DNA from: an uncultured Bacilli bacterium
GTDB taxonomy: Bacteria; Bacillota_I; Bacilli_A; RF39; UBA660
Direction of reading: 5' to 3'
Assembly (NCBI GenBank): GCA_958413985.1
Contig: CATYVZ010000006.1
Span: 2,072-66,071, forward strand
DNA: 64,000 bases
Shown here: positions 1 through 38,476 of the stretch, in pieces
Numbering within the stretch: position 1 is the first letter of the stretch
Layout: each line of letters begins with the position of its first letter
The notes under the pieces: generated by a model
Seen by the model: only the letters and a program-made list of their open reading frames with translations
Databases searched by the model: none
Told to the model about the DNA's origin: nothing
Program-made: the position numbers and the translations under genes

Positions 1-736
1 TCATCAAATAATCATCGACTAAATGAGCAAAATGGTAAGTTGGTAAGCCATCACCTTTAATGATAATTATATCCAAATCATTTTCTGGTAATTCTAATTT
101 TCCTTTAACCAAATCGGTATAAACGATTTTATTAGTAAATTTACCTGGTGATTTTAATCTTATAACATACTGTTCACCATTTTTAATCTTATTTAATACT
201 TCATCTTTTGATAAATATCTATCTCTAGCCCATTTCCCATAGTAACCGATTCTCTGTTTAAGTTCCTCTTGCTCTTTTCTAATATCGGCTAATTCTTCCT
301 CACTACAAAAACAAGCATACGCTAAATCATTGATAATTAAATATTTAGCAAAAGCCTGATATATATCTTTTCTTGCACTTTGAATATATGGACCATAATC
401 ACCGATCCATTCTTCCTCACTGATCATTCCCTCGTCAATAGCAATACCATAGTTTTTTAAATCTCTAATAATTCCAGATACACCATCAGTAATTTCACGT
501 TTTTTATCAGTGTCTTCAATTCTTAAAAAGAAAACTCCATTAGTCTGTTTTGCCATTTTGCTAGCTATAAAAGCCGAAAATAAAGCTCCCATATGGACAC
601 ATCCAGTTGGACTTGGTGCATATCTAGTGACGATTGCCTCTTTTGGCAAATCTCTTTTCGGATAAATCTTTATATATTCATCGATTGTTTTTTCTACATT
701 TGGCAATAAAATATCAGCAAACTCTTTATTAGTCAT
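1..736 (-). CDS. gltX: glutamyl-tRNA synthetase (GluRS), N-terminal part; the gene continues past the window start
   Basis: The minus-strand frame translates to MTNKEFADILLPNVEK...TRYAPSPTGCVHMGALFSA...DGLPTYHFAHLVDDYLM, i.e. the class-I HIGH-like and GluRS signature regions. A GGAGA RBS sits upstream of the ATG at 736. The ORF is missing from the track because it runs off the window edge. Confidence 0.7.
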   Translation of the reverse strand, partial: MTNKEFADILLPNVEKTIDEYIKIYPKRDLPKEAIVTRYAPSPTGCVHMGALFSAFIASKMAKQTNGVFFLRIEDTDKKREITDGVSGIIRDLKNYGIAIDEGMISEEEWIGDYGPYIQSARKDIYQAFAKYLIINDLAYACFCSEEELADIRKEQEELKQRIGYYGKWARDRYLSKDEVLNKIKNGEQYVIRLKSPGKFTNKIVYTDLVKGKLELPENDLDIIIIKGDGLPTYHFAHLVDDYLM

Positions 737-9123: not shown

Positions 9124-9227
9124 CTTATCACAATTTAATTTTATCAGAATTTTAAATATTTTACAACATCTAAAACAATAAACATTATTAAATAGTTGTA
9201 AACAACTTAATTATTAGAAAAAAAGAC

Positions 9228-10541
9228 CTAGAGTTGATTATCTAAATCATTTCTTTGACCATCTTTTATTATATATTCTTCTTTAGTTCTTGAATCATAG
9301 ACATAGGTTACCTTTTGTGGTGTATTAACTTCTTCTTTTTTTATAAATATATTTTCTATCTTTTCTTTTACCTGTTCTTTGTTAAATGGTTTTGATATGT
9401 AATCTACAAATCCTTCTTTGATATATTTTTCTCTTGCTCCTGATACTGCATCAGCTGTTAATGCTATTACTGGTGTTTTAAATTCTTTATTTTCTTTTAA
9501 TTTGGCTAAAGCTCTTTCACCACTCATATTAGGCATCATTATATCCATCAATATTAAATCATATTCTTTTTCTTTTACTTTTTCGATGCACTCTATTCCA
9601 TCATAACATTCTTCTATTTCAAAGTTAAAATCTTGCAATGCTTTAATTGCTACTTTGATGTTTAATTTATTATCATCTACTATCAATATCTTTTTGCCTG
9701 ATAAATCTTTTTTGTTTTCGTTAGATAACTCATTTATATCGATATTTTCTCTTTTTTGATTACTTATTTTCTGAGGTAAATAAACTACAAATATCGATCC
9801 TTTTCCGTATTGACTTTGAACATTTATCTTACCACCCATCATCTCTACTAATGACTTAGTTATAGCTAGTCCTAATCCGGTTCCTTCGGTTGTTGAATTC
9901 ATCTCAACATCTAATCTTTCAAATTTAGTGAATAATTTGTTGATATTTTCTGCTTTTATTCCTTTCCCTGTGTCCTTAACACTTATGATTAATTTACATA
10001 TATCTTTTTCATTGATACATTTTATTCCTAATGTTATCATACCTTTTTCTGTATATTTGATCGCATTAGACAATAAATTGTTGATTACTTGTTTTATATG
10101 AATCCTATCCCCGATTAATTCTTCCGGTAAATCTTCAGCTATATCTAATTTAAATTCGATTGGTTTTTCTTTTATTCTACTAGTCGTCACTTTACATAAT
10201 GACACTATTTCTTTTTTTAAATTATATGGAGTATTGATAATTTCCATTTTTTCTGATTCGATCTTATTTATATCTAAGATATTACCTACTATTTCCAATA
10301 GCGTTTGTGAAGCATTTTGAATATCAGTAGCATCTAAAGCTACTTCGTTTGGTACTTGATCTTTATAGCTTACGATATCTTCACTTAATCCTACTATTGC
10401 ATTTAATGGCGTTCTTATCTCATGAGACATACTACTTAAAAAGTCACTCTTAGCTCGATTAGCTTTCTCAGCTAAATCTTTTGCTAGAGTCATTTGTTGT
10501 AACATCTTAACATCTGGATTTTCGATTGTAAAATACATGAT
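9228..10541. repeat. 1314-bp direct repeat, copy A. It is >99.7 % identical to 22500..23813 and covers the HisKA-HATPase-REC coding part.
   Basis: The two copies align base-for-base at an offset of 13272 bp, with 3 differences: 9231/22503 (g/a), 9258/22530 (a/g) and 10518/23790 (a/g). The latter two are synonymous. Identity stops abruptly after ...aaatacatgat. Confidence 0.9.
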
Positions 10542-11159
10542 TACACAAATTAAAGTCTCTATATATGTCATAATCAAAAGTTGAGGATTACTTATTTGAA
10601 TAGAAATCGCTATACCACCGATAATTAAAAATATAAAAACAGGTATATATTTTTTATTTTTAAGTTTATTAATATTTGTTACCAACATAAATAATATAAC
10701 AATAATTGCTAAAGCCGAAATAAGATAAGTAAAATAAACACTCGCTCCAGTTGTATATCTTATTTTGAAATCATTCTCAATAATTATATTGATAGGTAAA
10801 ATAGATAAAATAATACCTACAATTATATAATATATAATAAATATAACATATCTATTCTTCTTAATTTCTAAATCATTATTTATGATACTATAAATATAAT
10901 AAGCAAATGTAGAAATCCATAGAATTATATAAAACAGATAAATTTTATAAATAATTACACTAATTAAAGGATGGTCAAAATAAATAAAAGAAGCATAAGT
11001 GCATAATAATTCTATTATCAATCCTACAAAATTAGAAATTATCAAAACACTGAATATTTGTGTCTCTTTACTATTTATATGTCCCTTAACATAAAACAAA
11101 ATTATAACTAACAAACTAAAAGGTACTGCACATAAAGGAAAAAATATTCCACTTCCCAT
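9228..11159 (-). CDS. Hybrid sensor histidine kinase, copy 1. It has a multi-TM sensor domain, HisKA, HATPase_c and a C-terminal receiver (REC) domain.
   Basis: H-box SHEIRTPLNAIVG, G-boxes (GTGLGLAI) and a REC domain (ILIVDDN...LILMDIMMP). The likely start is the second Met at 11159, which has a GGAGG RBS; the track start at 11177 has none. The C-terminal ~437 aa are identical to copy 2. Confidence 0.85.
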   Translation of the reverse strand: MGSGIFFPLCAVPFSLLVIILFYVKGHINSKETQIFSVLIISNFVGLIIELLCTYASFIYFDHPLISVIIYKIYLFYIILWISTFAYYIYSIINNDLEIKKNRYVIFIIYYIIVGIILSILPINIIIENDFKIRYTTGASVYFTYLISALAIIVILFMLVTNINKLKNKKYIPVFIFLIIGGIAISIQISNPQLLIMTYIETLICVIMYFTIENPDVKMLQQMTLAKDLAEKANRAKSDFLSSMSHEIRTPLNAIVGLSEDIVSYKDQVPNEVALDATDIQNASQTLLEIVGNILDINKIESEKMEIINTPYNLKKEIVSLCKVTTSRIKEKPIEFKLDIAEDLPEELIGDRIHIKQVINNLLSNAIKYTEKGMITLGIKCINEKDICKLIISVKDTGKGIKAENINKLFTKFERLDVEMNSTTEGTGLGLAITKSLVEMMGGKINVQSQYGKGSIFVVYLPQKISNQKRENIDINELSNENKKDLSGKKILIVDDNKLNIKVAIKALQDFNFEIEECYDGIECIEKVKEKEYDLILMDIMMPNMSGERALAKLKENKEFKTPVIALTADAVSGAREKYIKEGFVDYISKPFNKEQVKEKIENIFIKKEEVNTPQKVTYVYDSRTKEEYIIKDGQRNDLDNQL

Positions 11160-11187
11160 ATCATAACCTCCATACATCTATTTTGAT

Positions 11188-11202
11188 GTAATTATACCAC
11201 AC
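11188..11202 (-). promoter_or_regulatory. TRTG-extended -10 promoter for kinase copy 1 (TGTGgTATAAT), with no obvious -35
   Basis: Minus strand reads ttttttttGTGTGGTATAATtacatc, about 25 nt upstream of the first ATG. Confidence 0.4.
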
Positions 11203-11219
11203 AAAAAAAAGAATAGCAA

Positions 11220-12986
11220 TTATATACTATTCTTCAATTTTAATACTTTTGAGGCATTTATTTTTTCAACTGCATCATTTTCTAAATAGTCATAGTCAAT
11301 TTTTTCTGTACCCTTTTTTCTAGGAATCTCTGAAACAAATTCAATATAAGTAGGTATTTCATAGCGTTTTAATTGTTCTACTTGTCCATTGGCAGTTATT
11401 ATCGGTTTATTAAACTGTTCTTTAATTTCTTCTAAAACTTGATCTGATTGTTCTACTCCATCATTTAAAACAATATACGCCTTATTAACATATAAAGAAT
11501 CTTTAGCTGGAACTTTAACAACAGCACATTCACTCACTTTATCAAAATAAGAAATAATGTTTTGAACACGATCACAATATACTTTATTTAATGTAGAAAT
11601 TATATAAAATCTTGACTGTCTTCCTGTTAAGGTAAAATAACCTTGACGATCAATGAAACCTAAAGTACCAGTTTTAAAGTATATTTTTCCATCTTTTTCA
11701 AATTTAGCTTCTTTAGTTAATTCTGGCTGTTTATAATATTCCTTAAAAACATGTTTACCACAAACACATAATAATCCTTCTTCGTTGTATTTTTTTTCTT
11801 CCATTGTATCAGGATCAACTATAATTGCCTCGGTTCCAACAAGAATCTTGCCAGCTGTTTCCGGTCTTATTTCGATTCCTGTTGGATTAGTTCCACAACT
11901 TACCGTTTCAGCATTTCCTGAACCATTACCTATTTCTACGTTCTTAGCTCCATGATTTTCAAAAAAGTCTTTACCTCTCTTATAATGATTTGGAGTCAAA
12001 AAATCTCCTCCAGAAATAAATGTAGTAATAGATGATAGATCTTGATCTTTAGGTGTATAACGCATAATTAATTCTAATAATGCTGGACTTCCAAAGATAA
12101 TATTAGGCTTTTTCTTCAAATAATAACAAATAGTATCTTTGGAAATATTAGGAGCAAGAATTGCTGTTTTTTTACTCAATAAAGTCATAATTGTTGATGT
12201 GGCAAAACCATAAGGATAAGAAAATGGTACGCATACGAGTGTTCTATCACCATTTAAAGATTTAATGTGACTAGAATTTTTTAAATATACTCCTGCCGCC
12301 AAAACATTTTCATTAGTTAAAACAACCGATTTTGGTTTACCTGTTGTACCACTGGTAAATAATATCAAAGCGTCATCTTTCCCAGAGTTATTTGCCAAAC
12401 CTTTGCTCTGATATTTAGAAATACTTCCTAAACTATTAAAGTCGATCTTACTGTCATCACTAGTAATATGATAATCTTCATTTAATGATAATGTATTTGT
12501 TTTTTGTTTATCTAAAGTAATAATATATTTAACATTTGTTTTATTTTTTATATTAATATTTTCTTCTTTACTTTTATCATAGTTAATGAAAACAGGTGAT
12601 TCGAATAAATTAAGATAATCACAAATTTCATCTACTTGTGCATTAATATCTAAAAATGTCATCACCGCACCAATTCGATTACAAGCTAAAAATGCTGCTA
12701 CCGCCTGATAATAATTGGGCATACACACTGAAATAATATCGTTTTTTTTGACACCTAATTCTTTTAAAGCTTTGGAAATAGTTATAGCATCTTTAAATAG
12801 TTGATCATAACTTACTGTTAGATCAAGACAATCAATAGCATCTTTTCCTTTATAAAATGAATTTATTAATTTAATAGAATTGTAAATACTCATATTAGGT
12901 ATAATTGGATTTTTAGCAAAAATTGAATAACCTTTATTCTGTGGTTTATCAAAACTAGGATAGTCTTTAAAGTTTTCTTCCTTCAT
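11220..12986 (-). CDS. adenylate-forming enzyme, copy 1 (AMP-dependent synthetase/ligase, acyl-CoA-ligase-like)
   Basis: A3/core motif LFTSGTTGKPKSV, a YGxTE-like motif and a C-terminal domain. Strong GGAAGGGGGA RBS. Confidence 0.8.
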   Translation of the reverse strand: MKEENFKDYPSFDKPQNKGYSIFAKNPIIPNMSIYNSIKLINSFYKGKDAIDCLDLTVSYDQLFKDAITISKALKELGVKKNDIISVCMPNYYQAVAAFLACNRIGAVMTFLDINAQVDEICDYLNLFESPVFINYDKSKEENINIKNKTNVKYIITLDKQKTNTLSLNEDYHITSDDSKIDFNSLGSISKYQSKGLANNSGKDDALILFTSGTTGKPKSVVLTNENVLAAGVYLKNSSHIKSLNGDRTLVCVPFSYPYGFATSTIMTLLSKKTAILAPNISKDTICYYLKKKPNIIFGSPALLELIMRYTPKDQDLSSITTFISGGDFLTPNHYKRGKDFFENHGAKNVEIGNGSGNAETVSCGTNPTGIEIRPETAGKILVGTEAIIVDPDTMEEKKYNEEGLLCVCGKHVFKEYYKQPELTKEAKFEKDGKIYFKTGTLGFIDRQGYFTLTGRQSRFYIISTLNKVYCDRVQNIISYFDKVSECAVVKVPAKDSLYVNKAYIVLNDGVEQSDQVLEEIKEQFNKPIITANGQVEQLKRYEIPTYIEFVSEIPRKKGTEKIDYDYLENDAVEKINASKVLKLKNSI

Positions 12987-13511: not shown

Positions 13512-14028
13512 TTACAAATCAAATTCGTAAATATTTTCTATGATTTTCAATCCACCAACATTTCCATCTTCACTATCGATTATTTTTCCACCTAATGCCG
13601 TGTAAAAATTTTCAGATGGACTTCCTTTTAAACATCTAACTATTATATTTTTATATCCCATATTTTTTAACAAATCAAAACATTCTGTAATTAATTTTTT
13701 ACCAATTCCTTTTCTTTGATTTTCTTTTTCTATATATATTGAATAAACTTCACCCATATCTACATAATCATTTCCACGTCCTTTACCATAGCAAGCAAAA
13801 CCCAATATGTCATTATCTTCTTCATAAACAATATAATGATATTCATTATCTTTTTTTATAGCTTCTTTTATATTATTATTTCTTTGTTCAAAATTTTTCT
13901 CTTGATTTATAAATATTTCTTCAGGAAAAAACTCACTATAAGTTGTCTTCCATGAATTTATATGTATTCTAGTTATTTTTTTTATGTGTTTATAGGTAAT
14001 CTTTGAAATACTTTTACATTTTTTCCAT
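13512..14028 (-). CDS. GNAT family N-acetyltransferase whose 5' end is disrupted by a +1 frameshift in an A6 tract. This could be a pseudogene, a slippage site or a sequencing error.
   Basis: The GNAT body frame is open from 14033 down to 13512 (...ITRIHINSWKTTYSEFFPEE...YHYIVYEEDNDILGFACYG...QRKGIGKKL...) with no in-frame start. An ATG at 14028 is followed by ATGGAAAAAATGTAA. Removing one A from the tract (14019..14024) fuses the ATG in frame, giving MEKCKSISKITYKHI... A TRTG-extended -10 (TGTGgCATAAT) lies at 14070..14081. Confidence 0.5.
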
Positions 14029-14170
14029 AAATATCACTTAATTCTTTATCTATATTTGATTCAAGATGTGATTATGCCACACGAAAGAAAATGGATATTA
14101 AAAATAATCTTATGATTTAGGACTAATTCTATGATTTATTTATCAACTTTAATATCAATAATAAAACACA

Positions 14171-14887
14171 TCATATATTTAGAATACTTTTAACTTCTTT
14201 TGCAGCTTGACAAATCAATTTAGTGCCATTTGACAAACATATTTTTCCATGACCAGATAAAACTATATCAGCTTTATATTTTGTTAACTTTATTATACTA
14301 TTAACAATTGCTTCTTTATTAAAAGCTGGATCCCCTTCCCAACCAAATAAAAATTTATTTAAGAAGACGCCATCTGCTTCCAATGTGTCACCGGTAAACA
14401 AAACAAATTCACCATCAACTTTTGCCCTAATAGCCATTCCTCCATTTGTATGCCCTGGTATCATAATAAATTCAAATACAATACCATTGATAATCATTTC
14501 TTGATCTACAAATATTTCTACATCAGGAATAAACGCAGGAAATGATTGTTCTATGTCATCTGATGTTCCTTTTGGACCGCCTTGTTTACAATAATTTGTA
14601 TCACCTGCCCCTACTATTATCTTTGCACCTGTCATTTGTAATTCTTTAGCACCGCCACAGTGATCATGGTGTCCATGAGTAAGAATAACATGCGTTATAG
14701 GCGAATTAATATTAAATTTTTTTAACGTTTTTCTTATTATAGCAGGACCGTTTAAAGCCTCTCCGCAATCTATTAATATTAATCCTTGATCTGTATTTAT
14801 ACCATATACTTCGCCTAATGTCCCTTTATTATTTTCAGCAGCAAAGCAGCTACCACTTAAATAAAATAAATTATTTGAAATTATCAA
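14171..14887 (-). CDS. MBL-fold metallo-hydrolase
   Basis: HxHxDH motif (THGHHDHCGG) with the downstream His and Asp ligands. TTG start with a GGAGG RBS. Confidence 0.75.
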   Translation of the reverse strand: MIISNNLFYLSGSCFAAENNKGTLGEVYGINTDQGLILIDCGEALNGPAIIRKTLKKFNINSPITHVILTHGHHDHCGGAKELQMTGAKIIVGAGDTNYCKQGGPKGTSDDIEQSFPAFIPDVEIFVDQEMIINGIVFEFIMIPGHTNGGMAIRAKVDGEFVLFTGDTLEADGVFLNKFLFGWEGDPAFNKEAIVNSIIKLTKYKADIVLSGHGKICLSNGTKLICQAAKEVKSILNI

Positions 14888-15633: not shown

Positions 15634-16656
15634 TTATTTATTAATGTTATACAATAAACTATTTTCTATATTTTTTTGTAAAGTTAACACTTTGTAAAAC
15701 TCATCTTTTTTTTGTTCAAAACTAGAATGATATTCCGCACCCAAATAATTTATAATTAAATTAACTACATCTTCATTAGGATATTGTAATTGCTCATTCC
15801 AATAATTTAATACACGTAAATATTGCCTAAATTTCATTCTTAAATGCTTGGATGAATGATTAGTAACATCTTCTTTTAATAAAATTGCTACAGCTACTAA
15901 TGCATCAGCAAATTTTTCTTTCATAATAGAATCTATATCAAGAAAATCTGCTATTCTTGAGCTGGATACTGTTGAACTTGTACCAAATTTACACATTGAT
16001 AAAGCTAAGTTACTGATTCCCATATCGACAGCTAACTTTCTTTCATTATTTTCCATAACAACAAAAGAAGCAAAATTCAAAAACTCGTTTGTACCTTTTT
16101 TTTTAAGTCCTATATTAAAATCCCTTCCAAAAATATTTTTTTCATCCATACCATATCGATGTCTATAATGTTCAATACTTGATTGATCAACTAAACGAGT
16201 TATTTTACTATCAACATTTTCAGTAGCCTTTATTAAATCCTCATCCGTAGAACTTACCCTTATACAAAGATTTTCAGGAGAGATATGCAAATATTTTTCA
16301 TCAGTTAAATAATCAAAAGTATCTTTAACAATTCTTTCTAGTTCTGGTTTTGCTATTATTCCCATTCCTCTATAATAACAGCCAAATTTTTGCGGTACAT
16401 TTGTTTGTAAATATTTAAATGATTTAAATTTCATACACTCTTGCACGATATATCTTCCAACATCACCGTAATTTTCAGTCTCTAAGTATTTTTTTAATGG
16501 TGAAATATTAGAACCAATAAAGTCAACCGTTGGATCAATTTTTGAAGTAACATTAACTGCAAGTTCTTCAATGTATCCTTTCTCATTAAAACAAACTTTA
16601 AATTTTTCTTCTATAAAATCTAAATATTCGCTTTTGCTAATTTTTTTATCACTCAT
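15634..16656 (-). CDS. stand-alone paralog of the alanyl-tRNA synthetase catalytic core (class II aaRS-like, AlaRS N-terminal domain only)
   Basis: 340 aa that align by eye to the first ~250 aa of the alaS in this window. DPTVDFIGSNISPLKKYL matches DPSVLFNTAGMQPLIPYL, QECMKF matches QKCIRT, ISPENLCIRVS matches IPVERLAVTVF, and AVDMGISNLALS matches the motif-3 region NVDTGMGYERV. The tRNA-recognition and editing domains are absent. Confidence 0.55.
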   Translation of the reverse strand: MSDKKISKSEYLDFIEEKFKVCFNEKGYIEELAVNVTSKIDPTVDFIGSNISPLKKYLETENYGDVGRYIVQECMKFKSFKYLQTNVPQKFGCYYRGMGIIAKPELERIVKDTFDYLTDEKYLHISPENLCIRVSSTDEDLIKATENVDSKITRLVDQSSIEHYRHRYGMDEKNIFGRDFNIGLKKKGTNEFLNFASFVVMENNERKLAVDMGISNLALSMCKFGTSSTVSSSRIADFLDIDSIMKEKFADALVAVAILLKEDVTNHSSKHLRMKFRQYLRVLNYWNEQLQYPNEDVVNLIINYLGAEYHSSFEQKKDEFYKVLTLQKNIENSLLYNINK

Positions 16657-20761: not shown

Positions 20762-22201
20762 CTATCTTTTATTAAATTCTTTTATCTTTCTTTTTGCATA
20801 AGTGGTCTGTGCTTTATTTATCCAATCTTCTCTTGGCCCAAATGATAAATCATCAGTAACTATTCTAACTCTATCTTTATTTTGTAATACATAATCTACT
20901 GGTACATATTCATCATTTACAAACACTCCAACCATTGTGTTTCCTATATCTGTATGAATTTTATAGGCAAAATCTATCGCTGTCGCCCCTTTGGGAAGCT
21001 CTATAATATCTCCTTTAGTTGTATAAACATATACTCTATCAGCAAATAATTCACTTTTTACTTGATTTATAAATTGTTGATTATCTCCAAACATAGAATT
21101 TATTTCTGTTAACGATTTAAAAAATTGAAATTTTTCTTTTAGATTCTCTTGCATCACATCTCTTGCTTTTCCTTTTTGTTCATCCCAATATGCCGTTAAA
21201 CCAAACGATGCTACTTTGTCCATATCGAAAGTTCTAATTTGAGTTTGAACTAATCTATCATCAGGACCAAACACTGTCGTATGTAAACTTCTATACATAT
21301 TTGTTTTTGGATTACATATATAATCTTTAAATTTATCATTTATTGGATGATATTCTTGATGAATCAAACCTAATGTTAAGTAACAATTTTCTATTTCATC
21401 AACCATTATTTTTAAAGCAAGCAAATCATGAATATCTGATAATTTATGACCTTCATTTAATCTTTTGTATATACCATATATATTTTTAGTTCTTACTTTT
21501 ATTTCATTAGGTATATTCCTATTTTTTAATAATGTTTCTATTTTATATAGCATTTCCTTAAGACAGTTTTTACTTGTTTCTTCAATCTTTGTTTTTCTTT
21601 CTTCAATTTTTTTATACATGTCTGGTTTAAGATATTGTAAAGATAAATCTTCTAGTTCTGACTTTATTCTATATGCTCCGATATAATATGCAAGTGGTAC
21701 AAATATTTCCATCGTTTCAAGGGCATTTTCTTTTTGCTTAAATTCTGATTTAAACTCTAATGTTCTCATATTATGAAGTCTATCGGCAAGTTTTATTATA
21801 ATTATTCTTACATCTTCTGTTATTCCTGTTATTATCTTTCGAGTATTTGCTAAATTTTGATCTTGTTTCGAAGAAAAATTCATTTTAGATAGTTTTGTTA
21901 CTCCATCTACTAAATTAGCAATATTTTGGTTAAAATCATGGGCAATATCTTCTTTAGTAATATTAGTATCTTCTAAAGTATCATGTAAAAGACCTGCACA
22001 TACTGTATCTTTATCAGCATGCATGTCAGATAAAATATATGCAACATTCAAAGGATGACTTATATATGGTTCACCACTTTGTCTCATTTGTCCTTTATGC
22101 AAAGCATCTGCATATTCATAAGCCTTTTTTACAATTCCTATCTCATCTGGATTATATTCTTCTAGTTTATTTAATAAATCTTGTAACACAATATTATTCA
22201 T
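20762..22201 (-). CDS. RelA/SpoT homolog (long RSH; HD hydrolase + synthetase + TGS) that lacks the C-terminal helical/ACT(RRM) region. The true start is at 22201.
   Basis: HD motif LLHDTLEDT, synthetase motifs (IHDLLALKIMV; RSLHTTVFGPDDRLVQTQIRTFDMDKVASFGLTAYW) and a TGS domain (VYVYTTKGDIIELPKGATAIDFAYKIHTDIG). The ATG at 22201 has a GGAGGTG RBS. The 24-codon upstream extension in the ORF track lacks one. Confidence 0.8.
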   Translation of the reverse strand: MNNIVLQDLLNKLEEYNPDEIGIVKKAYEYADALHKGQMRQSGEPYISHPLNVAYILSDMHADKDTVCAGLLHDTLEDTNITKEDIAHDFNQNIANLVDGVTKLSKMNFSSKQDQNLANTRKIITGITEDVRIIIIKLADRLHNMRTLEFKSEFKQKENALETMEIFVPLAYYIGAYRIKSELEDLSLQYLKPDMYKKIEERKTKIEETSKNCLKEMLYKIETLLKNRNIPNEIKVRTKNIYGIYKRLNEGHKLSDIHDLLALKIMVDEIENCYLTLGLIHQEYHPINDKFKDYICNPKTNMYRSLHTTVFGPDDRLVQTQIRTFDMDKVASFGLTAYWDEQKGKARDVMQENLKEKFQFFKSLTEINSMFGDNQQFINQVKSELFADRVYVYTTKGDIIELPKGATAIDFAYKIHTDIGNTMVGVFVNDEYVPVDYVLQNKDRVRIVTDDLSFGPREDWINKAQTTYAKRKIKEFNKR

Positions 22202-22250
22202 CAAAACACCTCCGAATAGAAAAATAATCGGTGCTAAAAACACATAATGT

Positions 22251-22388
22251 TTAACTAGCACCGATATTATCATATTTGTTATTTAAAGCAGAATAGAAAC
22301 ATGAACAAATAATGTCAGTAAAATATTGATTTCTAACACTTAATTCTTTTACATAATCAATGATTAATTCATCAATTAGTTTTATCAT
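22251..22388 (-). CDS. small protein (45 aa), first gene of the operon
   Basis: MIKLIDELIIDYVKELSVRNQYFTDIICSCFYSALNNKYDNIGAS. It has a very strong RBS (GAGGGGGAA + 6 nt + ATG) directly downstream of the operon promoter. Confidence 0.45.
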   Translation of the reverse strand: MIKLIDELIIDYVKELSVRNQYFTDIICSCFYSALNNKYDNIGAS

Positions 22389-22420: not shown

Positions 22421-22448
22421 ATTTTACTACTTTACAAAAAAATGTCAA
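22421..22448 (-). promoter_or_regulatory. sigmaA-type promoter (TTGACA-16-TAAAAT) for the operon small ORF -> rel-like -> rSAM/His-phosphatase -> B12-rSAM -> AlaRS-like -> S51 peptidase -> MBL hydrolase
   Basis: Minus strand reads TTGACAtttttttgtaaagtagTAAAAT, followed by intergenic gaps of only 5-54 nt down to 14171. Confidence 0.45.
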
Positions 22449-22499
22449 TAGTTTTATAAAAATAAATCACCGTTAAAACAATTAATATCTAAAATACAT

Positions 22500-23813
22500 C
22501 TAAAGTTGATTATCTAAATCATTTCTTTGGCCATCTTTTATTATATATTCTTCTTTAGTTCTTGAATCATAGACATAGGTTACCTTTTGTGGTGTATTAA
22601 CTTCTTCTTTTTTTATAAATATATTTTCTATCTTTTCTTTTACCTGTTCTTTGTTAAATGGTTTTGATATGTAATCTACAAATCCTTCTTTGATATATTT
22701 TTCTCTTGCTCCTGATACTGCATCAGCTGTTAATGCTATTACTGGTGTTTTAAATTCTTTATTTTCTTTTAATTTGGCTAAAGCTCTTTCACCACTCATA
22801 TTAGGCATCATTATATCCATCAATATTAAATCATATTCTTTTTCTTTTACTTTTTCGATGCACTCTATTCCATCATAACATTCTTCTATTTCAAAGTTAA
22901 AATCTTGCAATGCTTTAATTGCTACTTTGATGTTTAATTTATTATCATCTACTATCAATATCTTTTTGCCTGATAAATCTTTTTTGTTTTCGTTAGATAA
23001 CTCATTTATATCGATATTTTCTCTTTTTTGATTACTTATTTTCTGAGGTAAATAAACTACAAATATCGATCCTTTTCCGTATTGACTTTGAACATTTATC
23101 TTACCACCCATCATCTCTACTAATGACTTAGTTATAGCTAGTCCTAATCCGGTTCCTTCGGTTGTTGAATTCATCTCAACATCTAATCTTTCAAATTTAG
23201 TGAATAATTTGTTGATATTTTCTGCTTTTATTCCTTTCCCTGTGTCCTTAACACTTATGATTAATTTACATATATCTTTTTCATTGATACATTTTATTCC
23301 TAATGTTATCATACCTTTTTCTGTATATTTGATCGCATTAGACAATAAATTGTTGATTACTTGTTTTATATGAATCCTATCCCCGATTAATTCTTCCGGT
23401 AAATCTTCAGCTATATCTAATTTAAATTCGATTGGTTTTTCTTTTATTCTACTAGTCGTCACTTTACATAATGACACTATTTCTTTTTTTAAATTATATG
23501 GAGTATTGATAATTTCCATTTTTTCTGATTCGATCTTATTTATATCTAAGATATTACCTACTATTTCCAATAGCGTTTGTGAAGCATTTTGAATATCAGT
23601 AGCATCTAAAGCTACTTCGTTTGGTACTTGATCTTTATAGCTTACGATATCTTCACTTAATCCTACTATTGCATTTAATGGCGTTCTTATCTCATGAGAC
23701 ATACTACTTAAAAAGTCACTCTTAGCTCGATTAGCTTTCTCAGCTAAATCTTTTGCTAGAGTCATTTGTTGTAACATCTTAACATCTGGGTTTTCGATTG
23801 TAAAATACATGAT
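22500..23813. repeat. 1314-bp direct repeat, copy B (partner of 9228..10541)
   Basis: See copy A. Confidence 0.9.
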
Positions 23814-24413
23814 AATAACAATTAGCGAAAAAACATATCCTATTAAAAATAATTGTGGATAAAAAACACCTAAAACAAAAACTAAACCACCTAAAAAAAT
23901 TAAGGCATATAATGGTGTAAATTTAGATTTTACAATTTTCTTCATATATTTTATGCAAATAATTATATCAAACATTAAAAATAGCAAACACAAACCGTAA
24001 GTTAAATAAATTGATAATCCTTGCGGAATTATGGTATCGTCAACTCTAATAAAGTTGATTGGTAACAACAATATAATTAATACGATAAAAGCAACAATAA
24101 AATTAAATATTCTATTTCTATTTTCTTTATAGTTACATATATTTAACAAATAATTTAAAAACAATGCGCTCCAAACAGCATAATATGAAGATGTTAATTT
24201 AGAAAACAACTTATATATAGTTGTTTCAACAGATATTCCAGATTCATACCAAATACAAGTTAATATTTCTAAAAATAACCCCAATAATGTAACTATTAAT
24301 AACTTACTATAAATAGTTGTTTCACTATTTTTTACTCTTTGTTTTGAAAAAAACATAAATGACAAAATTAACAATATTAGTAATGAACTAATTGAAAAAT
24401 ACACACCCATCAT
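22500..24413 (-). CDS. Hybrid sensor histidine kinase, copy 2. Its multi-TM sensor domain differs from copy 1; the transmitter and receiver are identical to copy 1.
   Basis: The C-terminal ~437 aa are identical to copy 1. The N-terminal ~200 aa (about 6 TM segments) are unrelated in sequence. Start is ambiguous between GTG at 24422 and ATG at 24413 or 24410. Confidence 0.85.
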   Translation of the reverse strand: MMGVYFSISSLLILLILSFMFFSKQRVKNSETTIYSKLLIVTLLGLFLEILTCIWYESGISVETTIYKLFSKLTSSYYAVWSALFLNYLLNICNYKENRNRIFNFIVAFIVLIILLLPINFIRVDDTIIPQGLSIYLTYGLCLLFLMFDIIICIKYMKKIVKSKFTPLYALIFLGGLVFVLGVFYPQLFLIGYVFSLIVIIMYFTIENPDVKMLQQMTLAKDLAEKANRAKSDFLSSMSHEIRTPLNAIVGLSEDIVSYKDQVPNEVALDATDIQNASQTLLEIVGNILDINKIESEKMEIINTPYNLKKEIVSLCKVTTSRIKEKPIEFKLDIAEDLPEELIGDRIHIKQVINNLLSNAIKYTEKGMITLGIKCINEKDICKLIISVKDTGKGIKAENINKLFTKFERLDVEMNSTTEGTGLGLAITKSLVEMMGGKINVQSQYGKGSIFVVYLPQKISNQKRENIDINELSNENKKDLSGKKILIVDDNKLNIKVAIKALQDFNFEIEECYDGIECIEKVKEKEYDLILMDIMMPNMSGERALAKLKENKEFKTPVIALTADAVSGAREKYIKEGFVDYISKPFNKEQVKEKIENIFIKKEEVNTPQKVTYVYDSRTKEEYIIKDGQRNDLDNQL

Positions 24414-24461
24414 AACACCCACTTATTAATAAAATTTAACATCATTTACTTATCTCTAAAA

Positions 24462-26372: not shown

Positions 26373-28133
26373 CTATTCTAAAATAGCCTTAATTCTTCTA
26401 ACTCCTGCACTACTTGCTTCCTCTTTAACGATCTTAAACTTACCTAATTCACTGGTATTTTTCACATGTGGACCGCCACATAACTCTTTAGAAATATCAC
26501 CAATGCTATAAACAGTTACAATATCTGGATACTTCTCGATAAACATGCATTCAGCTCCAGATTTTATCGCTTCTTCCTTGCCCATTTCTACAACAGTGAC
26601 ATCTAATCCTTCATCGATCCAATCATTGACTAATTGTTCTGTTTTTTGCTTTTCTTCATCAGTTAATTTATGGTCACATGAAAAATCGAAACGCATTCTT
26701 TCACTAGTAATATTACTTCCTTTTTGATGAATATTTTTATCGACGACAATTTTTAAAGCTGCATTTAACAAATGAGTAGCTGTGTGATATTTTATTTCTT
26801 TATCTGAATCACCAGCTAAGCCACCTTTAAATTTACCACTTGAAGCAGTACGTGACAATTCCTGATGAGCTTTAAATTTCTCATTAAAACCTTCGATATC
26901 GACAACAATTCCTTTTTCATTAGCTAGTTCAACTGTCAATTCAATAGGAAAACCATAAGTATCGTATAGTTTAAACGCTAAATCTTTATTTAGTGATTTT
27001 TCTTTTAAATTGTCAGTTATTTTTTCAAACTCTTTTAATCCTTTAGCTAAAGTGCGGTTAAACTTATTTTTTTCATTAGTCAAACCTTCTAAAATGACTT
27101 CTTTATTTTTAGTTAATTCAGAATAGTATTGTGCATATTTATCGATAATCATATTAGCAATGATAACTTCCCAATTACTATTTTCATCAATCTCTAATTT
27201 TTTAGCATGTCGAATCGCACGTCTAATCAATCTTCTTAAAATATAACCTTGATCTGTATTAGAAGGTTTAATGCCAGCTTCATCACCTAATATAAAGACA
27301 GCCGTTCTGATATGGTCAGCAATTATTCTTATACTATTAGGATTTTCTTCATATGTATATTTTGCTAATTGTTCGATCTTTTTAACAATATCTATCCATA
27401 CACTTGATAGATAGTTGTCAGTAACACCTTCTAAAACAGCAACAACTCTTTCATATCCCATCCCAGTATCGACATTTTTTTGTGGTAGTTCAGTAATGTG
27501 ACCATCGTTATCTTTATAAAACTCCATAAATACATTATTCCATATTTCGACCCAACGTTCATCGTTTGGATCAAATTTAGCTGGTATTTCATCATTGCTT
27601 CGAAAATAAAATATTTCTGTATCTGGTCCGCAGGGCCCAGAATCGCCAGCAATCCAAAAATTATCTTCTTTTCCTAAATAGGCAATATGTTGATCACTTA
27701 TTCCTAAACTTTTCCAAATGTCAGCAGAGACATCATCTTTAGGAATATTGCCTTCACCTTTAAAAACTGTTACCGCTAATCTTTCGACAGGTATTTTTAA
27801 AATCTTAGTTAAAAATTCAAAACTATATCCAATACTTTCTTTTTTAAAGTAATCTCCTAATGACCAATTACCCAACATCTCAAAAAAAGTATGGTGTGTC
27901 ATATCGCCAACGCTGTCTAAATCGTTAGTTCGAATACATTTTTGATAGTCGACTAATCTTGTTCCATATGGATGTGGTCGTCCCATTAAATAAGGAATCA
28001 ACGGTTGCATTCCCGCTGTATTAAATAAAACGGAAGGATCATTTTCAGGAACCACCGGAGCTGAAGGGATCTGTTTGTGCCCTTTACTTATAAAAAAATC
28101 AATATATAAATCTTTAAGATTCATCTTTACCAC
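26373..28133 (-). CDS. alaS: alanyl-tRNA synthetase, short form (586 aa; catalytic, tRNA-recognition and editing domains, no C-Ala domain)
   Basis: N-terminus ...NDPSVLFNTAGMQP...HHTFFEMLGNWSLGDYFK..., editing-domain end ...HTATHLL...CGGPHV. Confidence 0.85.
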   Translation of the reverse strand: MVKMNLKDLYIDFFISKGHKQIPSAPVVPENDPSVLFNTAGMQPLIPYLMGRPHPYGTRLVDYQKCIRTNDLDSVGDMTHHTFFEMLGNWSLGDYFKKESIGYSFEFLTKILKIPVERLAVTVFKGEGNIPKDDVSADIWKSLGISDQHIAYLGKEDNFWIAGDSGPCGPDTEIFYFRSNDEIPAKFDPNDERWVEIWNNVFMEFYKDNDGHITELPQKNVDTGMGYERVVAVLEGVTDNYLSSVWIDIVKKIEQLAKYTYEENPNSIRIIADHIRTAVFILGDEAGIKPSNTDQGYILRRLIRRAIRHAKKLEIDENSNWEVIIANMIIDKYAQYYSELTKNKEVILEGLTNEKNKFNRTLAKGLKEFEKITDNLKEKSLNKDLAFKLYDTYGFPIELTVELANEKGIVVDIEGFNEKFKAHQELSRTASSGKFKGGLAGDSDKEIKYHTATHLLNAALKIVVDKNIHQKGSNITSERMRFDFSCDHKLTDEEKQKTEQLVNDWIDEGLDVTVVEMGKEEAIKSGAECMFIEKYPDIVTVYSIGDISKELCGGPHVKNTSELGKFKIVKEEASSAGVRRIKAILE

Positions 28134-36733: not shown

Positions 36734-38476
36734 TTATAAAATATTGGTCTTATTTTTTATTTCTTCTTTTAGTTTATCGATAAACTCAAGTCTACTAATA
36801 GTGATAGTTTCCTCACTACCTATATGACGATAACTTATTAAATTATCATCAACTTCTTTTTGTCCTAACACCAAAGTATATGGATACTTGTTAATAACAC
36901 TTTCTCTCATTCGATAACCGACCTTTTCTTCGCGATTATCTAGTTCTACTCTGACACCATTGCTAAACAATTCATCGTAAATTTCCCTAGCATATTTTAA
37001 ATGATGTTCATTATTAACTGGAATAATGTTAACTTGAACTGGCGCTAACCAAGTTGGAAATGCTCCCGCATAATGTTCAGTAATGATACCAATGAATCTT
37101 TCGATCGAACCAAAGATAACGCGATGGAGCATGATCGGTCTTTTTTTACTTCCATCACTAGCAACATAGGTTAAATCAAATCGTTCAGGTAGATTCATAT
37201 CTAATTGAATCGTACCACATTGCCAAACTCTTCCTAATGAATCTTTGACATGAAAATCTAATTTAGGGCCATAGAAAGCGCCATCTCCCTGATTGATTTT
37301 GCATTCTTTACCTGTTTTCTTGCAAGCTTCTAACAAAGTTTTTTCAGATTTGTCCCAAACCTCAATACTGCCGATATATTTACTAGGACGAGTCGATAAT
37401 TCGATCGTATAAGATAAATTAAATATCGAATAGATGCGATCGATAAAATTGATTAATTTAATTATTTCTGATTCGATCTGTTCTTCCGTCATAAAAATAT
37501 GGGCATCATCTTGCGTAAAAGTTCTTACGCGAAATAGTCCATTTAAAGCCCCGCTTGCTTCGTGGCGATGAACAAGTCCTAATTCACCCATTCTTAAAGG
37601 GAGCTCTTTATAGGAATGTAAACCATTTTTATAAACTAACATACCACCTGGACAATTCATCGGTTTAATCGCAAATTCTTTTTCATCGATTAAAGAAGTA
37701 TACATATTTTCTTTGTAATTAGCCCAATGACCAGATACTTCCCATAGATCACGGTTCAACATAATTGGTGTTTTGATAAATAAATATCCTTCTTTAGTAT
37801 GTTCTTGATACCAAAAGTCTTCTAACTCTTTTCTTAGAACCATTCCTTTAGGCAACCAAAAAGGAAATCCCGGACCATATTCACTAAACATAAATAATCC
37901 TAAATCTTTACCTAATTTTTTGTGATCACGTTTTTTAGCTTCTTCTAAATAGTTTAGATGTTCTTGTAAAGCTTCTTCTGTGTCAAAACAAACGCCATAG
38001 ATTCTTTGAAGCATTTTATTTTTTGAGTCGCCTTTAAAATAAGCACCACTTACTTTAAGGAGTTTAAAGTTTTTAAGTAACTTAGTACTTTCGACATGTG
38101 GTCCTTTGCAAAGATCGGTAAAATCTCCTTGTGTATAACAAGAAATGACTGTATCATCACTCATATTGTTAATTAAGTCGATTTTATATGGATCATTTTT
38201 AAACAATTCCAAAGCTTCTTCTTTTTTTAATTCTTCACGATAAATTCGCTTGCCATCCTTAGCAAGTTTTTTCATCTCTTTTTCGATTTTTTCTAGGTCT
38301 TCTTCTTTAATTACTTCATCACCTAAATCGATATCATAGTAAAAACCTTCTTCGATAACCGGACCAACCCAGAATAGAGCTTTAGGATATAAATGTTTAA
38401 CGGCTTGCGCTAAAAGATGTGCACAACTATGATTTAAAATATTTAATTTTTCATCTTCTTTGATATTTTTTAACAT
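36734..38476 (-). CDS. thrS: threonyl-tRNA synthetase lacking the N-terminal TGS (N1) domain
   Basis: It begins at the editing-domain HSCAHLLAQA motif. Class II motifs and the anticodon-binding domain are present (580 aa). Confidence 0.85.
   Translation of the reverse strand: MLKNIKEDEKLNILNHSCAHLLAQAVKHLYPKALFWVGPVIEEGFYYDIDLGDEVIKEEDLEKIEKEMKKLAKDGKRIYREELKKEEALELFKNDPYKIDLINNMSDDTVISCYTQGDFTDLCKGPHVESTKLLKNFKLLKVSGAYFKGDSKNKMLQRIYGVCFDTEEALQEHLNYLEEAKKRDHKKLGKDLGLFMFSEYGPGFPFWLPKGMVLRKELEDFWYQEHTKEGYLFIKTPIMLNRDLWEVSGHWANYKENMYTSLIDEKEFAIKPMNCPGGMLVYKNGLHSYKELPLRMGELGLVHRHEASGALNGLFRVRTFTQDDAHIFMTEEQIESEIIKLINFIDRIYSIFNLSYTIELSTRPSKYIGSIEVWDKSEKTLLEACKKTGKECKINQGDGAFYGPKLDFHVKDSLGRVWQCGTIQLDMNLPERFDLTYVASDGSKKRPIMLHRVIFGSIERFIGIITEHYAGAFPTWLAPVQVNIIPVNNEHHLKYAREIYDELFSNGVRVELDNREEKVGYRMRESVINKYPYTLVLGQKEVDDNLISYRHIGSEETITISRLEFIDKLKEEIKNKTNIL

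Follow-up and report, generated by a model that had tools for sequence, protein, structure and literature searches.

A short RelA/SpoT homologue with a substituted synthetase site heads diverse gene cassettes as a repeated module in uncultured gut Bacilli

The stretch of DNA analyzed here, 64,000 nucleotides of contig CATYVZ010000006.1 (assembly GCA_958413985.1, positions 2,072 to 66,071) from an uncultured Bacilli bacterium and referred to as the window, carries on its minus strand a gene for a short RelA/SpoT homologue (RSH) placed before a cassette of radical S-adenosylmethionine (SAM) enzyme genes. The host is a member of the Bacillota with about 28% GC, and its nearest named relative in the homologue search was 'Clostridium sp. 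CAG:710'. The RSH gene forms the distal part of a 1.7-kb module that comprises a promoter, a Cys-rich upstream open reading frame (uORF), a terminator hairpin overlapping the end of the uORF, and then the RSH itself (Table 1). Loci and assemblies from relatives, or from independent assemblies, are designated by L-numbers.

The RSH consists of an HD hydrolase domain, a synthetase-like domain and a TGS domain. Its minus-strand open reading frame extends over 20762..22273, with an ATG at 22273 that falls within the leader region, and the ATG at 22201 has GGAGGTG at 22213-22207 just upstream. Because of this ribosome-binding site (RBS) and the lengths of the closest 120 homologues, 475-481 aa in all, the 24-codon N-terminal extension is an artefact, as a preliminary description of the locus had supposed. 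The same description had recognized a Rel-like protein lacking the C-terminal regulatory half, and this was borne out: the NCBIfam model spoT_relA (TIGR00691) was matched at positions 1-450 of 687 only (529.8 bits, cutoff 499.2), and the closest solved structure, Bacillus subtilis Rel 6yxa, was covered by the alignment at residues 9-482 (a 440-bit match across residues 6-478). Because the alignment reaches residue 482 of B. subtilis Rel, the RSH ends where the helical domain begins and the rest of the C-terminal half is absent. No Pfam domain was found C-terminal of TGS, and the tail is about 30 residues long instead of the about 45 given in the preliminary description. The AlphaFold2 model (pLDDT 92.4, pTM 0.89) had 6yxa as its top Foldseek match, and its catalytic, N-terminal half superposed on Staphylococcus aureus Rel 7oiw at 1.7 Å (TMt 0.96).

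The HD motifs had been called intact, and H49, H73, D74, E77, D78, D140 and N144 are all present. The synthetase motifs had been called intact as well, which they are not. Gln319 replaces the catalytic Glu of the EVQIRT motif (E324 in B. subtilis Rel, E323 in RelSeq), and the Arg of DLLAVRI and the His of AAHW are replaced by Lys and Tyr, respectively. The query was aligned with 150 representatives of a library clustered at 50% identity, among them 41 short (450-520 aa) and 99 long (≥640 aa) sequences. At the catalytic position, the short set had Gln in 30, Lys in 4 and Glu in 4 sequences, and the long set had Glu in 99/99. Lys stood at the DLLAVRI Arg position in 29/41 and Tyr at the AAHW His position in 27/41 short sequences, while Arg and His were each kept in 99/99 long ones. 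The seven HD residues were invariant in 41/41 short representatives and in 92/92 close copies of the window RSH. In a neighbor-joining tree, the genuine short forms (roughly 460-510 aa) made up one clade, none of whose members has Glu at the catalytic site; the 4 short sequences with Glu nest among long Rel and are probably fragments or separate truncations. Judged by sequence, the window RSH belongs to a distinct short subfamily with HD, synthetase-like and TGS domains and without the helical, zinc-finger and RRM half.

The synthetase-like domain is not decaying. All three domains are under purifying selection (dN/dS over the 92 close copies, HD 0.09, synthetase-like 0.12, and TGS 0.10), and Q319, R237, K239, D259, K299, N301, Y303 and H307 are all invariant in these copies. 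In RelSeq, the substitution E323Q eliminated detectable synthetase activity, according to a passage of PMC13299517 that cites Hogg 2004.

Short forms among the matches listed in a scan of a genome collection were L003, L006 and L062. The last of these (10001-11452, from a metagenome-assembled genome of the Elusimicrobiaceae) encodes a 483-aa Rel that is cut after TGS, keeps the catalytic Glu (IIEIQIRT...AAHW) and overlaps lpxB; it is an independent truncation and is probably bifunctional, and it agrees with the description of an Elusimicrobium Rel without ACT (Atkinson 2011, PMC3153485). Related low-GC gut Bacilli have a normal Rel of 709-721 aa. Canonical Rel was sought with the nearest full-length Rel (L004), which returned matches from its own genus only ('Firmicutes bacterium CAG:822', 721 aa), and similarity to Rel C-terminal domains was found in none of the fetched loci of the group.

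The leader between the module promoter and the RSH combines the uORF and the hairpin in a conserved geometry. In the window, the uORF ends just within the hairpin loop, its stop codon being at 22253-22251. A Cys-rich uORF of 32-50 codons with a strong RBS was present in nearly every related locus with enough upstream DNA, and its peptide often carries the motif ..RN.YYTN.IYSC.., with Cys codons enriched but scattered. A strong stem followed by a T-run stands directly before the invariant GGAGG of the RSH in about 58 of 62 distinct leader tails, and the uORF stop falls within the hairpin in 59/62 distinct leaders (the 5' arm holds it in 19 and the loop in 40; stems have a median length of 12 bp). 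RNAalifold on 33 diverse leaders gave 9 consensus pairs with compensatory changes in 9/9, and an Rfam scan of the leader gave no family match. Peptide type and cassette type are uncoupled: one peptide type was seen before unrelated cassettes, and a single cassette type behind different peptides. On this ground, a leader peptide acting as a cassette-specific precursor was rejected as the main reading.

Judged by this arrangement, translation-coupled attenuation is the probable gate on expression of the RSH and its cassette. A ribosome reaching the uORF stop would melt the terminator and permit read-through into the RSH and the cassette, and a ribosome lagging on the uORF would let the terminator form. 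In the pyrBI-type attenuators of Escherichia coli, the leader open reading frame reads into the terminator. The module leader is like them in that a short translated leader overlaps with its 3' end the 5' arm of an intrinsic terminator, so that a closely following ribosome would block termination. It is unlike them in having no link to pyrimidine genes and in its Cys-rich peptide with a conserved internal motif.

DNA homology between the window and its relatives is limited to 22456->20763, a span that starts shortly before the -35 box and ends with the RSH stop codon, and its upstream edge lies at window 22456-22484, just before the promoter. Nucleotide identity of the module to the window was 91.5% in L089, 82.6% in L091 and 80.8% in L083. 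RSH orthologues that are 77-95% identical sit at different chromosomal sites with different neighbors on both sides: after comEA-comEC and before a GNAT gene in L083-L088; after ftsA-ftsZ-Fic and before two TyrRS/TrpRS-like genes, one of them HAD-fused, in L089; after dnaJ...Mob_Pre remnants and before sugar-nucleotide genes with two class Ia aminoacyl-tRNA synthetases (aaRS) in L091; after polA-fpg-scpAB and before genes for a pyridoxal phosphate (PLP) decarboxylase, a phosphodiesterase, a class Ia aaRS, a radical SAM enzyme, an AMP ligase and a hybrid kinase in L093; and after a Peptidase_S51 gene with a PNP_UDP_1 phosphorylase gene and before a catalytic-domain-only AlaRS paralogue, three radical SAM enzymes and an S51 protein in L003. 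A scan of metagenome contigs added 80 loci with 76-91% protein identity, and 93 loci were compared in total. Across these, the RSH heads co-directional arrays of 5-9 genes, which sort into at least 32 types of cassette and 228 protein clusters. The cassette type of the window was found again at another site in L120 and L157. The L003 cassette was considered as its orthologue and rejected, the B12-radical SAM enzymes being 24% identical, the S51 match marginal, and the 340-aa protein of the window unrelated to the AlaRS-like paralogue.

The module is present in more than one copy in relatives. L100 and L108 overlap on contig OIYS01000085.1 with 2,959/2,959 bases identical, so this contig holds two RSH modules on the same strand, 18.5 kb apart, whose RSH copies share 85.0% DNA identity. 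Tandem units were also seen, the upstream genes -9..-2 of L145 being the downstream genes +2..+9 of L161 and L169, and in one assembly the two RSH copies had coverages of 68.7 and 65.4. The preliminary description had left the choice between a minimal housekeeping Rel, expected as the only RSH at a conserved locus in relatives, and a lone island-borne accessory RSH. Neither fits what was found: the 77-95% identical orthologues lie at different loci, a single contig can hold at least two copies in relatives, and the window RSH is one member of a multi-copy module family heading many unrelated cassettes.

The leader-RSH layout also occurs in a 58%-identical relative, where it is followed by NUDIX, Metallophos, class Ib aaRS-like, GNAT, AMP ligase and hybrid kinase genes. 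More distant members of the short clade are solitary among housekeeping genes, L006 by dnaE/polC and L094 by radC-mreC, and the habit of joining module and cassette therefore looks like something elaborated within one lineage. A profile of the distant short RSHs returned almost only the over-sampled window genus, and the distant contexts were taken one by one. In plasmid and phage collections, nothing exceeded 60% identity and the top matches were ordinary chromosomal Rel/SpoT in mislabelled records, so these collections give no evidence of carriage of the module by known plasmids or phages. Upstream of RSH modules, Mob_Pre relaxase remnants, YhcG-type nuclease genes and a Fic gene were observed (L091/L092 8427-9453, L083-L086 6657-8800, and L089 8983-9642), which hints that RSH units arrive with, or near, mobile DNA.

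In the window, the gaps from the RSH to the successive co-directional genes are 54, 17, 5, 10 and 28 nt, and no terminator-like site was found between the RSH and its five downstream co-directional genes (Table 1). The earlier placement of the RSH as the first large gene of a radical-SAM operon agrees with this spacing, and the RSH is predicted to be co-transcribed with the cassette. The junction of kinase, leader, RSH and radical SAM genes was confirmed by two independent assemblies (L001 and L002; kinase-leader-RSH in L001). The protein cluster of the 340-aa protein (15634-16656) is also present in another cassette type, L125. Beyond the last tightly spaced gene, positions 13512-14170, comprising a 413-nt gap after the metallo-beta-lactamase-fold (MBL) gene and an 81-codon open reading frame, resemble a disrupted GNAT-type acetyltransferase (e.g., YHYIVYEEDNDILGFACYGKGRGNDYVD), and this remnant may be a pseudogene at the operon end.

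Table 1. Features of the RSH module, its cassette and the bracketing repeats in the window
Feature	Coordinates	Strand	Evidence
Short RSH, 479 aa, HD + synthetase-like + TGS, no C-terminal domains	20762..22201	-	Pfam, TIGR00691, 6yxa alignment, AlphaFold2
HD hydrolase domain, residues 27-172 (H49, H73-D74, E77-D78, D140, N144)	21686..22123	-	Pfam HD_4, E = 7e-42
Synthetase-like domain, residues 237-340 (Gln319 codon, 21247-21245)	21182..21493	-	Pfam RelA_SpoT, E = 3.6e-29
TGS domain, residues 390-449	20855..21034	-	Pfam TGS, E = 1.1e-20
RSH ribosome-binding site, GGAGGTG	22207..22213	-	GGAGG column invariant in leader alignment
Sigma-70-like module promoter, TTGACA, 16 nt, TAAAAT	22421..22448	-	11/12 consensus matches
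Leader uORF, 45 codons + stop, MIKLIDELIIDYVKELSVRNQYFTDIICSCFYSALNNKYDNIGAS, RBS GAGGGGG	22251..22388	-	Called as a gene in independent assembly L001
Terminator-like hairpin, 5' arm ATCGGTGCTA (22265-22256), 3' arm TAGCACCGAT (22236-22227), then T-run	22220..22265	-	-20.8 kcal/mol
Radical SAM (Fer4_12/Radical_SAM, N-terminal) fused to His_Phos_1 phosphatase, 727 aa	18524..20707	-	RSH adjacency confirmed in L001, L002
B12-binding radical SAM enzyme, 614 aa	16662..18506	-	Top matches below cutoff: PhpK, HpnJ, BchE-type families
340-aa protein, no Pfam family	15634..16656	-	First 180 residues weakly AlaRS-like (PRK01584, E = 1.4e-6, far under cutoff)
Peptidase_S51 family protein, 235 aa	14916..15623	-	Pfam
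MBL hydrolase, 238 aa, final tightly spaced operon gene	14171..14887	-	Pfam, spacing
AMP-binding (adenylate-forming) ligase, 588 aa	11220..12986	-	Own promoter-like site, 13044-13016
Hybrid histidine kinase + receiver domain, 649 aa, membrane N-terminal region	9228..11177	-	Domain scan
Direct repeat copy 1, 1,323 nt, within kinase gene 22500-24422	22491..23813	.	99.5% identical to 9219-10541
Direct repeat copy 2, 1,323 nt, kinase C-terminal 440 codons + 9 nt	9219..10541	.	99.5% identical to 22491-23813

An AMP-binding ligase paired with a receiver-bearing hybrid histidine kinase also closes the units in L093, L164 and L177, and in the window a second ligase-kinase pair lies directly upstream of the RSH module, with its hybrid kinase gene at 22500-24422. 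The C-terminal 440 residues of the two window kinases are identical, and their N-terminal membrane-sensor parts are divergent and weakly similar. The two direct repeats bracket a unit of 13,272 bp made up of leader, RSH, cassette, ligase and kinase, a layout to be expected from single-crossover integration, or loss, via the shared kinase segment. It also looks like recent recombination or gene conversion that swapped sensor modules on a constant kinase-receiver body. The bracketed block sits between alaS and ruvX-mltG-O-methyltransferase, genes which are neighbors in B. subtilis. Neither apt nor dtd was found within the window, and the bracketing of a 13.3-kb segment by 1,323-nt, 99.5% identical repeats between alaS and ruvX supports the accessory, non-canonical context that had been proposed from the window sequence.

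Other translation genes of the window were recorded as well. The alaS gene (26373-28133) encodes an AlaRS of 586 aa without the C-Ala domain, and thrS (36734-38476) encodes a ThrRS of 580 aa without the N-terminal TGS. In a search at gathering thresholds, neither gene had a T-box or any other Rfam element upstream of it. The lineage seems to trim protein domains, and T-box control may be absent. At the window edge (1-736, minus strand), a cut GluRS/GlnRS-like gene has 53% identity to a tRNA-synt_1c gene located seven genes downstream of the RSH in L083-L088, and the group probably has two different class Ic synthetases.

The commonest Pfam families in 149 cluster representatives from the cassettes were Radical_SAM (12), tRNA-synt_1b (6), Peptidase_S51 (4) and GNAT (4), and class Ia and ArgRS-type synthetase domains, Peptidase_S66, AMP-binding enzymes and hybrid kinases were also common. 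Individual scans found, besides full TyrRS and ArgRS, paralogues of the TrpRS-like type, a SAM synthetase of archaeal type, a C39-like peptidase and an APH-type kinase. Genes for aaRS-like proteins occurred in 13/30 well-sampled cassette types and made up 20/247 downstream versus 5/187 upstream genes. A rule that the RSH always precedes an aaRS was true for the first six contexts and then for only 13/30 cassette types, and it was retained as an enrichment only. Some aaRS paralogues of the cassettes cannot be housekeeping enzymes (L003 11447-12703, L089 11609-14787, L123 and L151); they include an AlaRS catalytic domain alone (418 aa), a TyrRS/TrpRS-like-HAD fusion (660 aa), and two to three TrpRS-like genes in a single cassette.

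Peptidase_S66 proteins, whose family includes MccF, which gives immunity to microcin C, recur in the cassettes along with GNAT acetyltransferases and extra aaRS (L127 14198-15241, L171 and others). S66 proteins, GNAT proteins and extra aaRS copies are typical self-resistance determinants against aminoacyl-nucleotide antibiotics, which suggests that some cassettes make or resist aminoacyl-nucleotide compounds. The cassette of L083-L088, headed by the commonest RSH variant, includes genes for an HD-domain protein of 170 aa and a CYTH (triphosphate tunnel) protein some 3.3-4.5 kb downstream of the RSH. Such proteins act on phosphorylated nucleotides in other systems, and those of L083-L088 could be linked to alarmone metabolism. 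A search for known defence systems with PADLOC gave a weak, generic-domain match only (PDC-S33, E = 1e-7).

The reading that we favor, with appreciable reserve, is that the RSH is a hydrolase-only ([Hs]) enzyme which has kept its synthetase as a pseudo-enzyme, is expressed from a translation-gated leader, and belongs to a multi-copy family of operon heads. Its HD site would degrade (p)ppGpp or a closely related molecule. The synthetase-like domain, with Gln in place of the catalytic Glu and the nucleotide-binding residues kept, would most likely serve as a non-catalytic, allosteric nucleotide-binding domain. Lacking the domains through which Rel docks on starved ribosomes, this RSH cannot be turned to synthesis by the ribosome. 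The module, several to a genome in a genus-level group of low-GC, small-genome gut Bacilli, heads different accessory operons.

Several points weigh against this account. Gln319 could still bind Mg weakly, and substrate-binding residues as strongly conserved as these would be compatible with a changed catalysis, too. If the group has no (p)ppGpp synthetase, be it RelP/RelQ or a full-length Rel, then (p)ppGpp would not be the substrate, and the account leaves unexplained why unrelated cassettes would need a hydrolase of their own. The sign of the leader regulation is a guess, because inspection of the leader sequences showed no antiterminator or alternative pairing. The uORF peptide is conserved at the amino acid level in its ..RN.YYTN.IYSC.. 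motif and could be a functional peptide, not just a sensor. Finally, multiple copies were seen in relatives at 76-91% identity, while the window holds one copy in 64 kb; by extension from these relatives, the genome of the window is expected to hold further copies. A more far-reaching proposal, put forward only tentatively, is that of a portable operon head, by which dozens of accessory operons of biosynthesis- or resistance-like content would each carry their own diverged, synthetase-dead Rel behind a Cys-rich uORF attenuator. Such an RSH would serve operon-specific licensing or regulation and not act as a global stringent factor, and it could use the dead synthetase as a sensor of nucleotides and TGS as one of RNA or tRNA, with a possible link to the hybrid kinases at the end of some units.

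That the RSH could instead be the only Rel of its host, trimmed to HD, synthetase and TGS and still a bifunctional stringent factor beside radical-SAM genes, is extremely improbable. The lineage does trim other proteins, such as its AlaRS of 586 aa and ThrRS of 580 aa, the 120 nearest homologues share the short form, L006 and L094 stand alone in housekeeping neighborhoods, and a second RSH type was absent from the 1.44 Mb of fetched loci, a comparison of low power. Against this, Gln replaces the catalytic Glu in every close copy (92/92), the change described for RelSeq E323Q in the passage cited above as abolishing synthesis. Moreover, two or more diverged copies share a contig in relatives, the locus differs among 77-95% identical orthologues, near-identical direct repeats bracket the unit, and related low-GC gut Bacilli keep a Rel of 709-721 aa. 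Participation in the chemistry of the cassette, with the HD or synthetase-like domain modifying or processing a nucleotide, an aminoacyl-nucleotide or a tRNA 3' end for the downstream enzymes and TGS holding the tRNA, is unlikely, even though the RSH always comes first in a co-directional, biosynthesis-like cassette. The enrichment of aaRS-like paralogues (13/30 types), including catalytic-domain-only AlaRS, HAD-fused and divergent class Ib forms, the recurrence of radical SAM (12 clusters), S51, MccF-like S66 and GNAT proteins, and the purifying selection on synthetase-like and TGS domains with invariant nucleotide-binding residues would all suit a pathway enzyme. The cassettes have no single enzyme or obvious intermediate in common, however, and some copies head just a GNAT gene. 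The RSH sequence follows lineage and not the type of cassette, the same cassette being found with RSH copies 76-100% identical in nucleotides and different cassettes with near-identical leader types, and the general base for pyrophosphate transfer is absent. Because this general base and Mg ligand is missing in 92/92 copies and the cassettes lack a common chemistry, the toxSAS-like pyrophosphorylation of tRNA or a pathway intermediate that the preliminary description had raised appears less likely.

Control of individual loci by the RSH, in which paralogues would act on their own or on competing cassettes through TGS binding of RNA or tRNA and a dead synthetase serving as nucleotide sensor, is quite unlikely. 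A comparable logic is known from Bacteroides fragilis, where UpxY/UpxZ paralogues head each capsule locus. Multi-copy paralogues at the 5' end of variable loci with a conserved leader and terminator, copies on the same contig that have diverged to 85% nucleotide identity and were not homogenized, and several units closing with a hybrid histidine kinase without DNA-binding output all fit such a role. No known RSH behaves in this way, though, and the invariant HD catalytic residues argue for real hydrolase chemistry. It is very unlikely that the Cys-rich small open reading frame is the center of the system, as a precursor or scaffold of the kind of ribosome-made peptides with post-translational modifications (RiPPs) or pearlins followed by a leaky terminator, with the RSH as a maturation or recognition component and the cassettes as tailoring enzymes. 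A terminator directly after the structural gene is the classic arrangement of RiPP operons, the small open reading frame is Cys-rich with a strong RBS and conservation at the amino acid level, and cassettes contain radical SAM/SPASM, C39-like peptidase, SAM synthetase, kinase-like and aaRS-like enzymes. The uncoupling of peptide types from cassette types speaks against it, many cassettes are without a peptide-modifying enzyme (e.g., those with sugar-nucleotide genes or GNAT only), and the placement of the stop within the hairpin in 59/62 leaders is not required by a simple leaky terminator.

Returning to the favored reading of a hydrolase-only operon head, the short clade departs from the picture of long RSHs as core, low-copy, vertically inherited stringent factors. 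The ribosome-sensing half has been lost clade-wide, the synthetase carries an inactivating change, strong selection has been kept, and, in one gut lineage, the gene has been multiplied as a 1.7-kb module over at least 32 operons. If the hydrolase-only prediction is true, removal or sensing of alarmones would be tied to individual accessory operons, a new wiring of (p)ppGpp signaling. No description of a multi-copy RSH module heading accessory operons was found in the searchable literature. The uORF-terminator leaders with their clear covariation are a large natural set for studies of translation-coupled attenuation, and the uncharacterized cassettes, with their many paralogues of aaRS-like type, radical SAM enzymes and peptidases of the S51/S66 families, constitute a catalogue from abundant uncultured human gut bacteria.

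In comparison to known systems, the best sequence and fold matches are the bifunctional Rel proteins of Firmicutes (6yxa, 7oiw, and RelSeq 1vj7), with which the window RSH shares the HD motifs and TGS; it differs from them in having no helical, zinc-finger or RRM domains, in three synthetase substitutions and in lacking a conserved single-copy locus. Extra copies of long RSHs have been described as rare (Atkinson 2011, PMC3153485). RshC of some strains of the Bacillus cereus group is the closest architectural precedent, as an accessory long RSH truncated within the helical domain with TGS retained, a likeness taken from the published description of RshC. Reported from six Bacillus strains and scored [HS], RshC is distinct from the core Rel and forms one additional, more divergent copy beside Rel, RelP and RelQ (PMC3153485). 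It has synthetase motifs, whereas the window clade has Gln for Glu, multiple copies, a uORF-terminator leader and an operon-head position. The toxSAS enzymes (Jimmy et al. 2020, PMC7229694) are likewise accessory, mobile-looking RSH-family genes in small conserved gene pairs, but they are small proteins that consist of the synthetase only, keep its active site intact and have a neutralizing neighbor gene, unlike the window RSH with its HD and TGS domains and substituted catalytic Glu. The closest functional precedent would be the Moraxellaceae SpoT[Hs] (Acinetobacter baumannii SpoT 7qpr; PMC9974481), in which the HD residues are kept, residues critical for synthesis are lost and the domain is retained, the pseudo-synthetase presumably stabilizing or regulating the HD domain (PMC9974481). 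There, a full C-terminal half wraps the core and the gene is single-copy and paired with RelA in Proteobacteria, whereas the window RSH descends from a Firmicutes-type Rel and is truncated and multi-copy, so the likeness would be one of working mode and not of descent.

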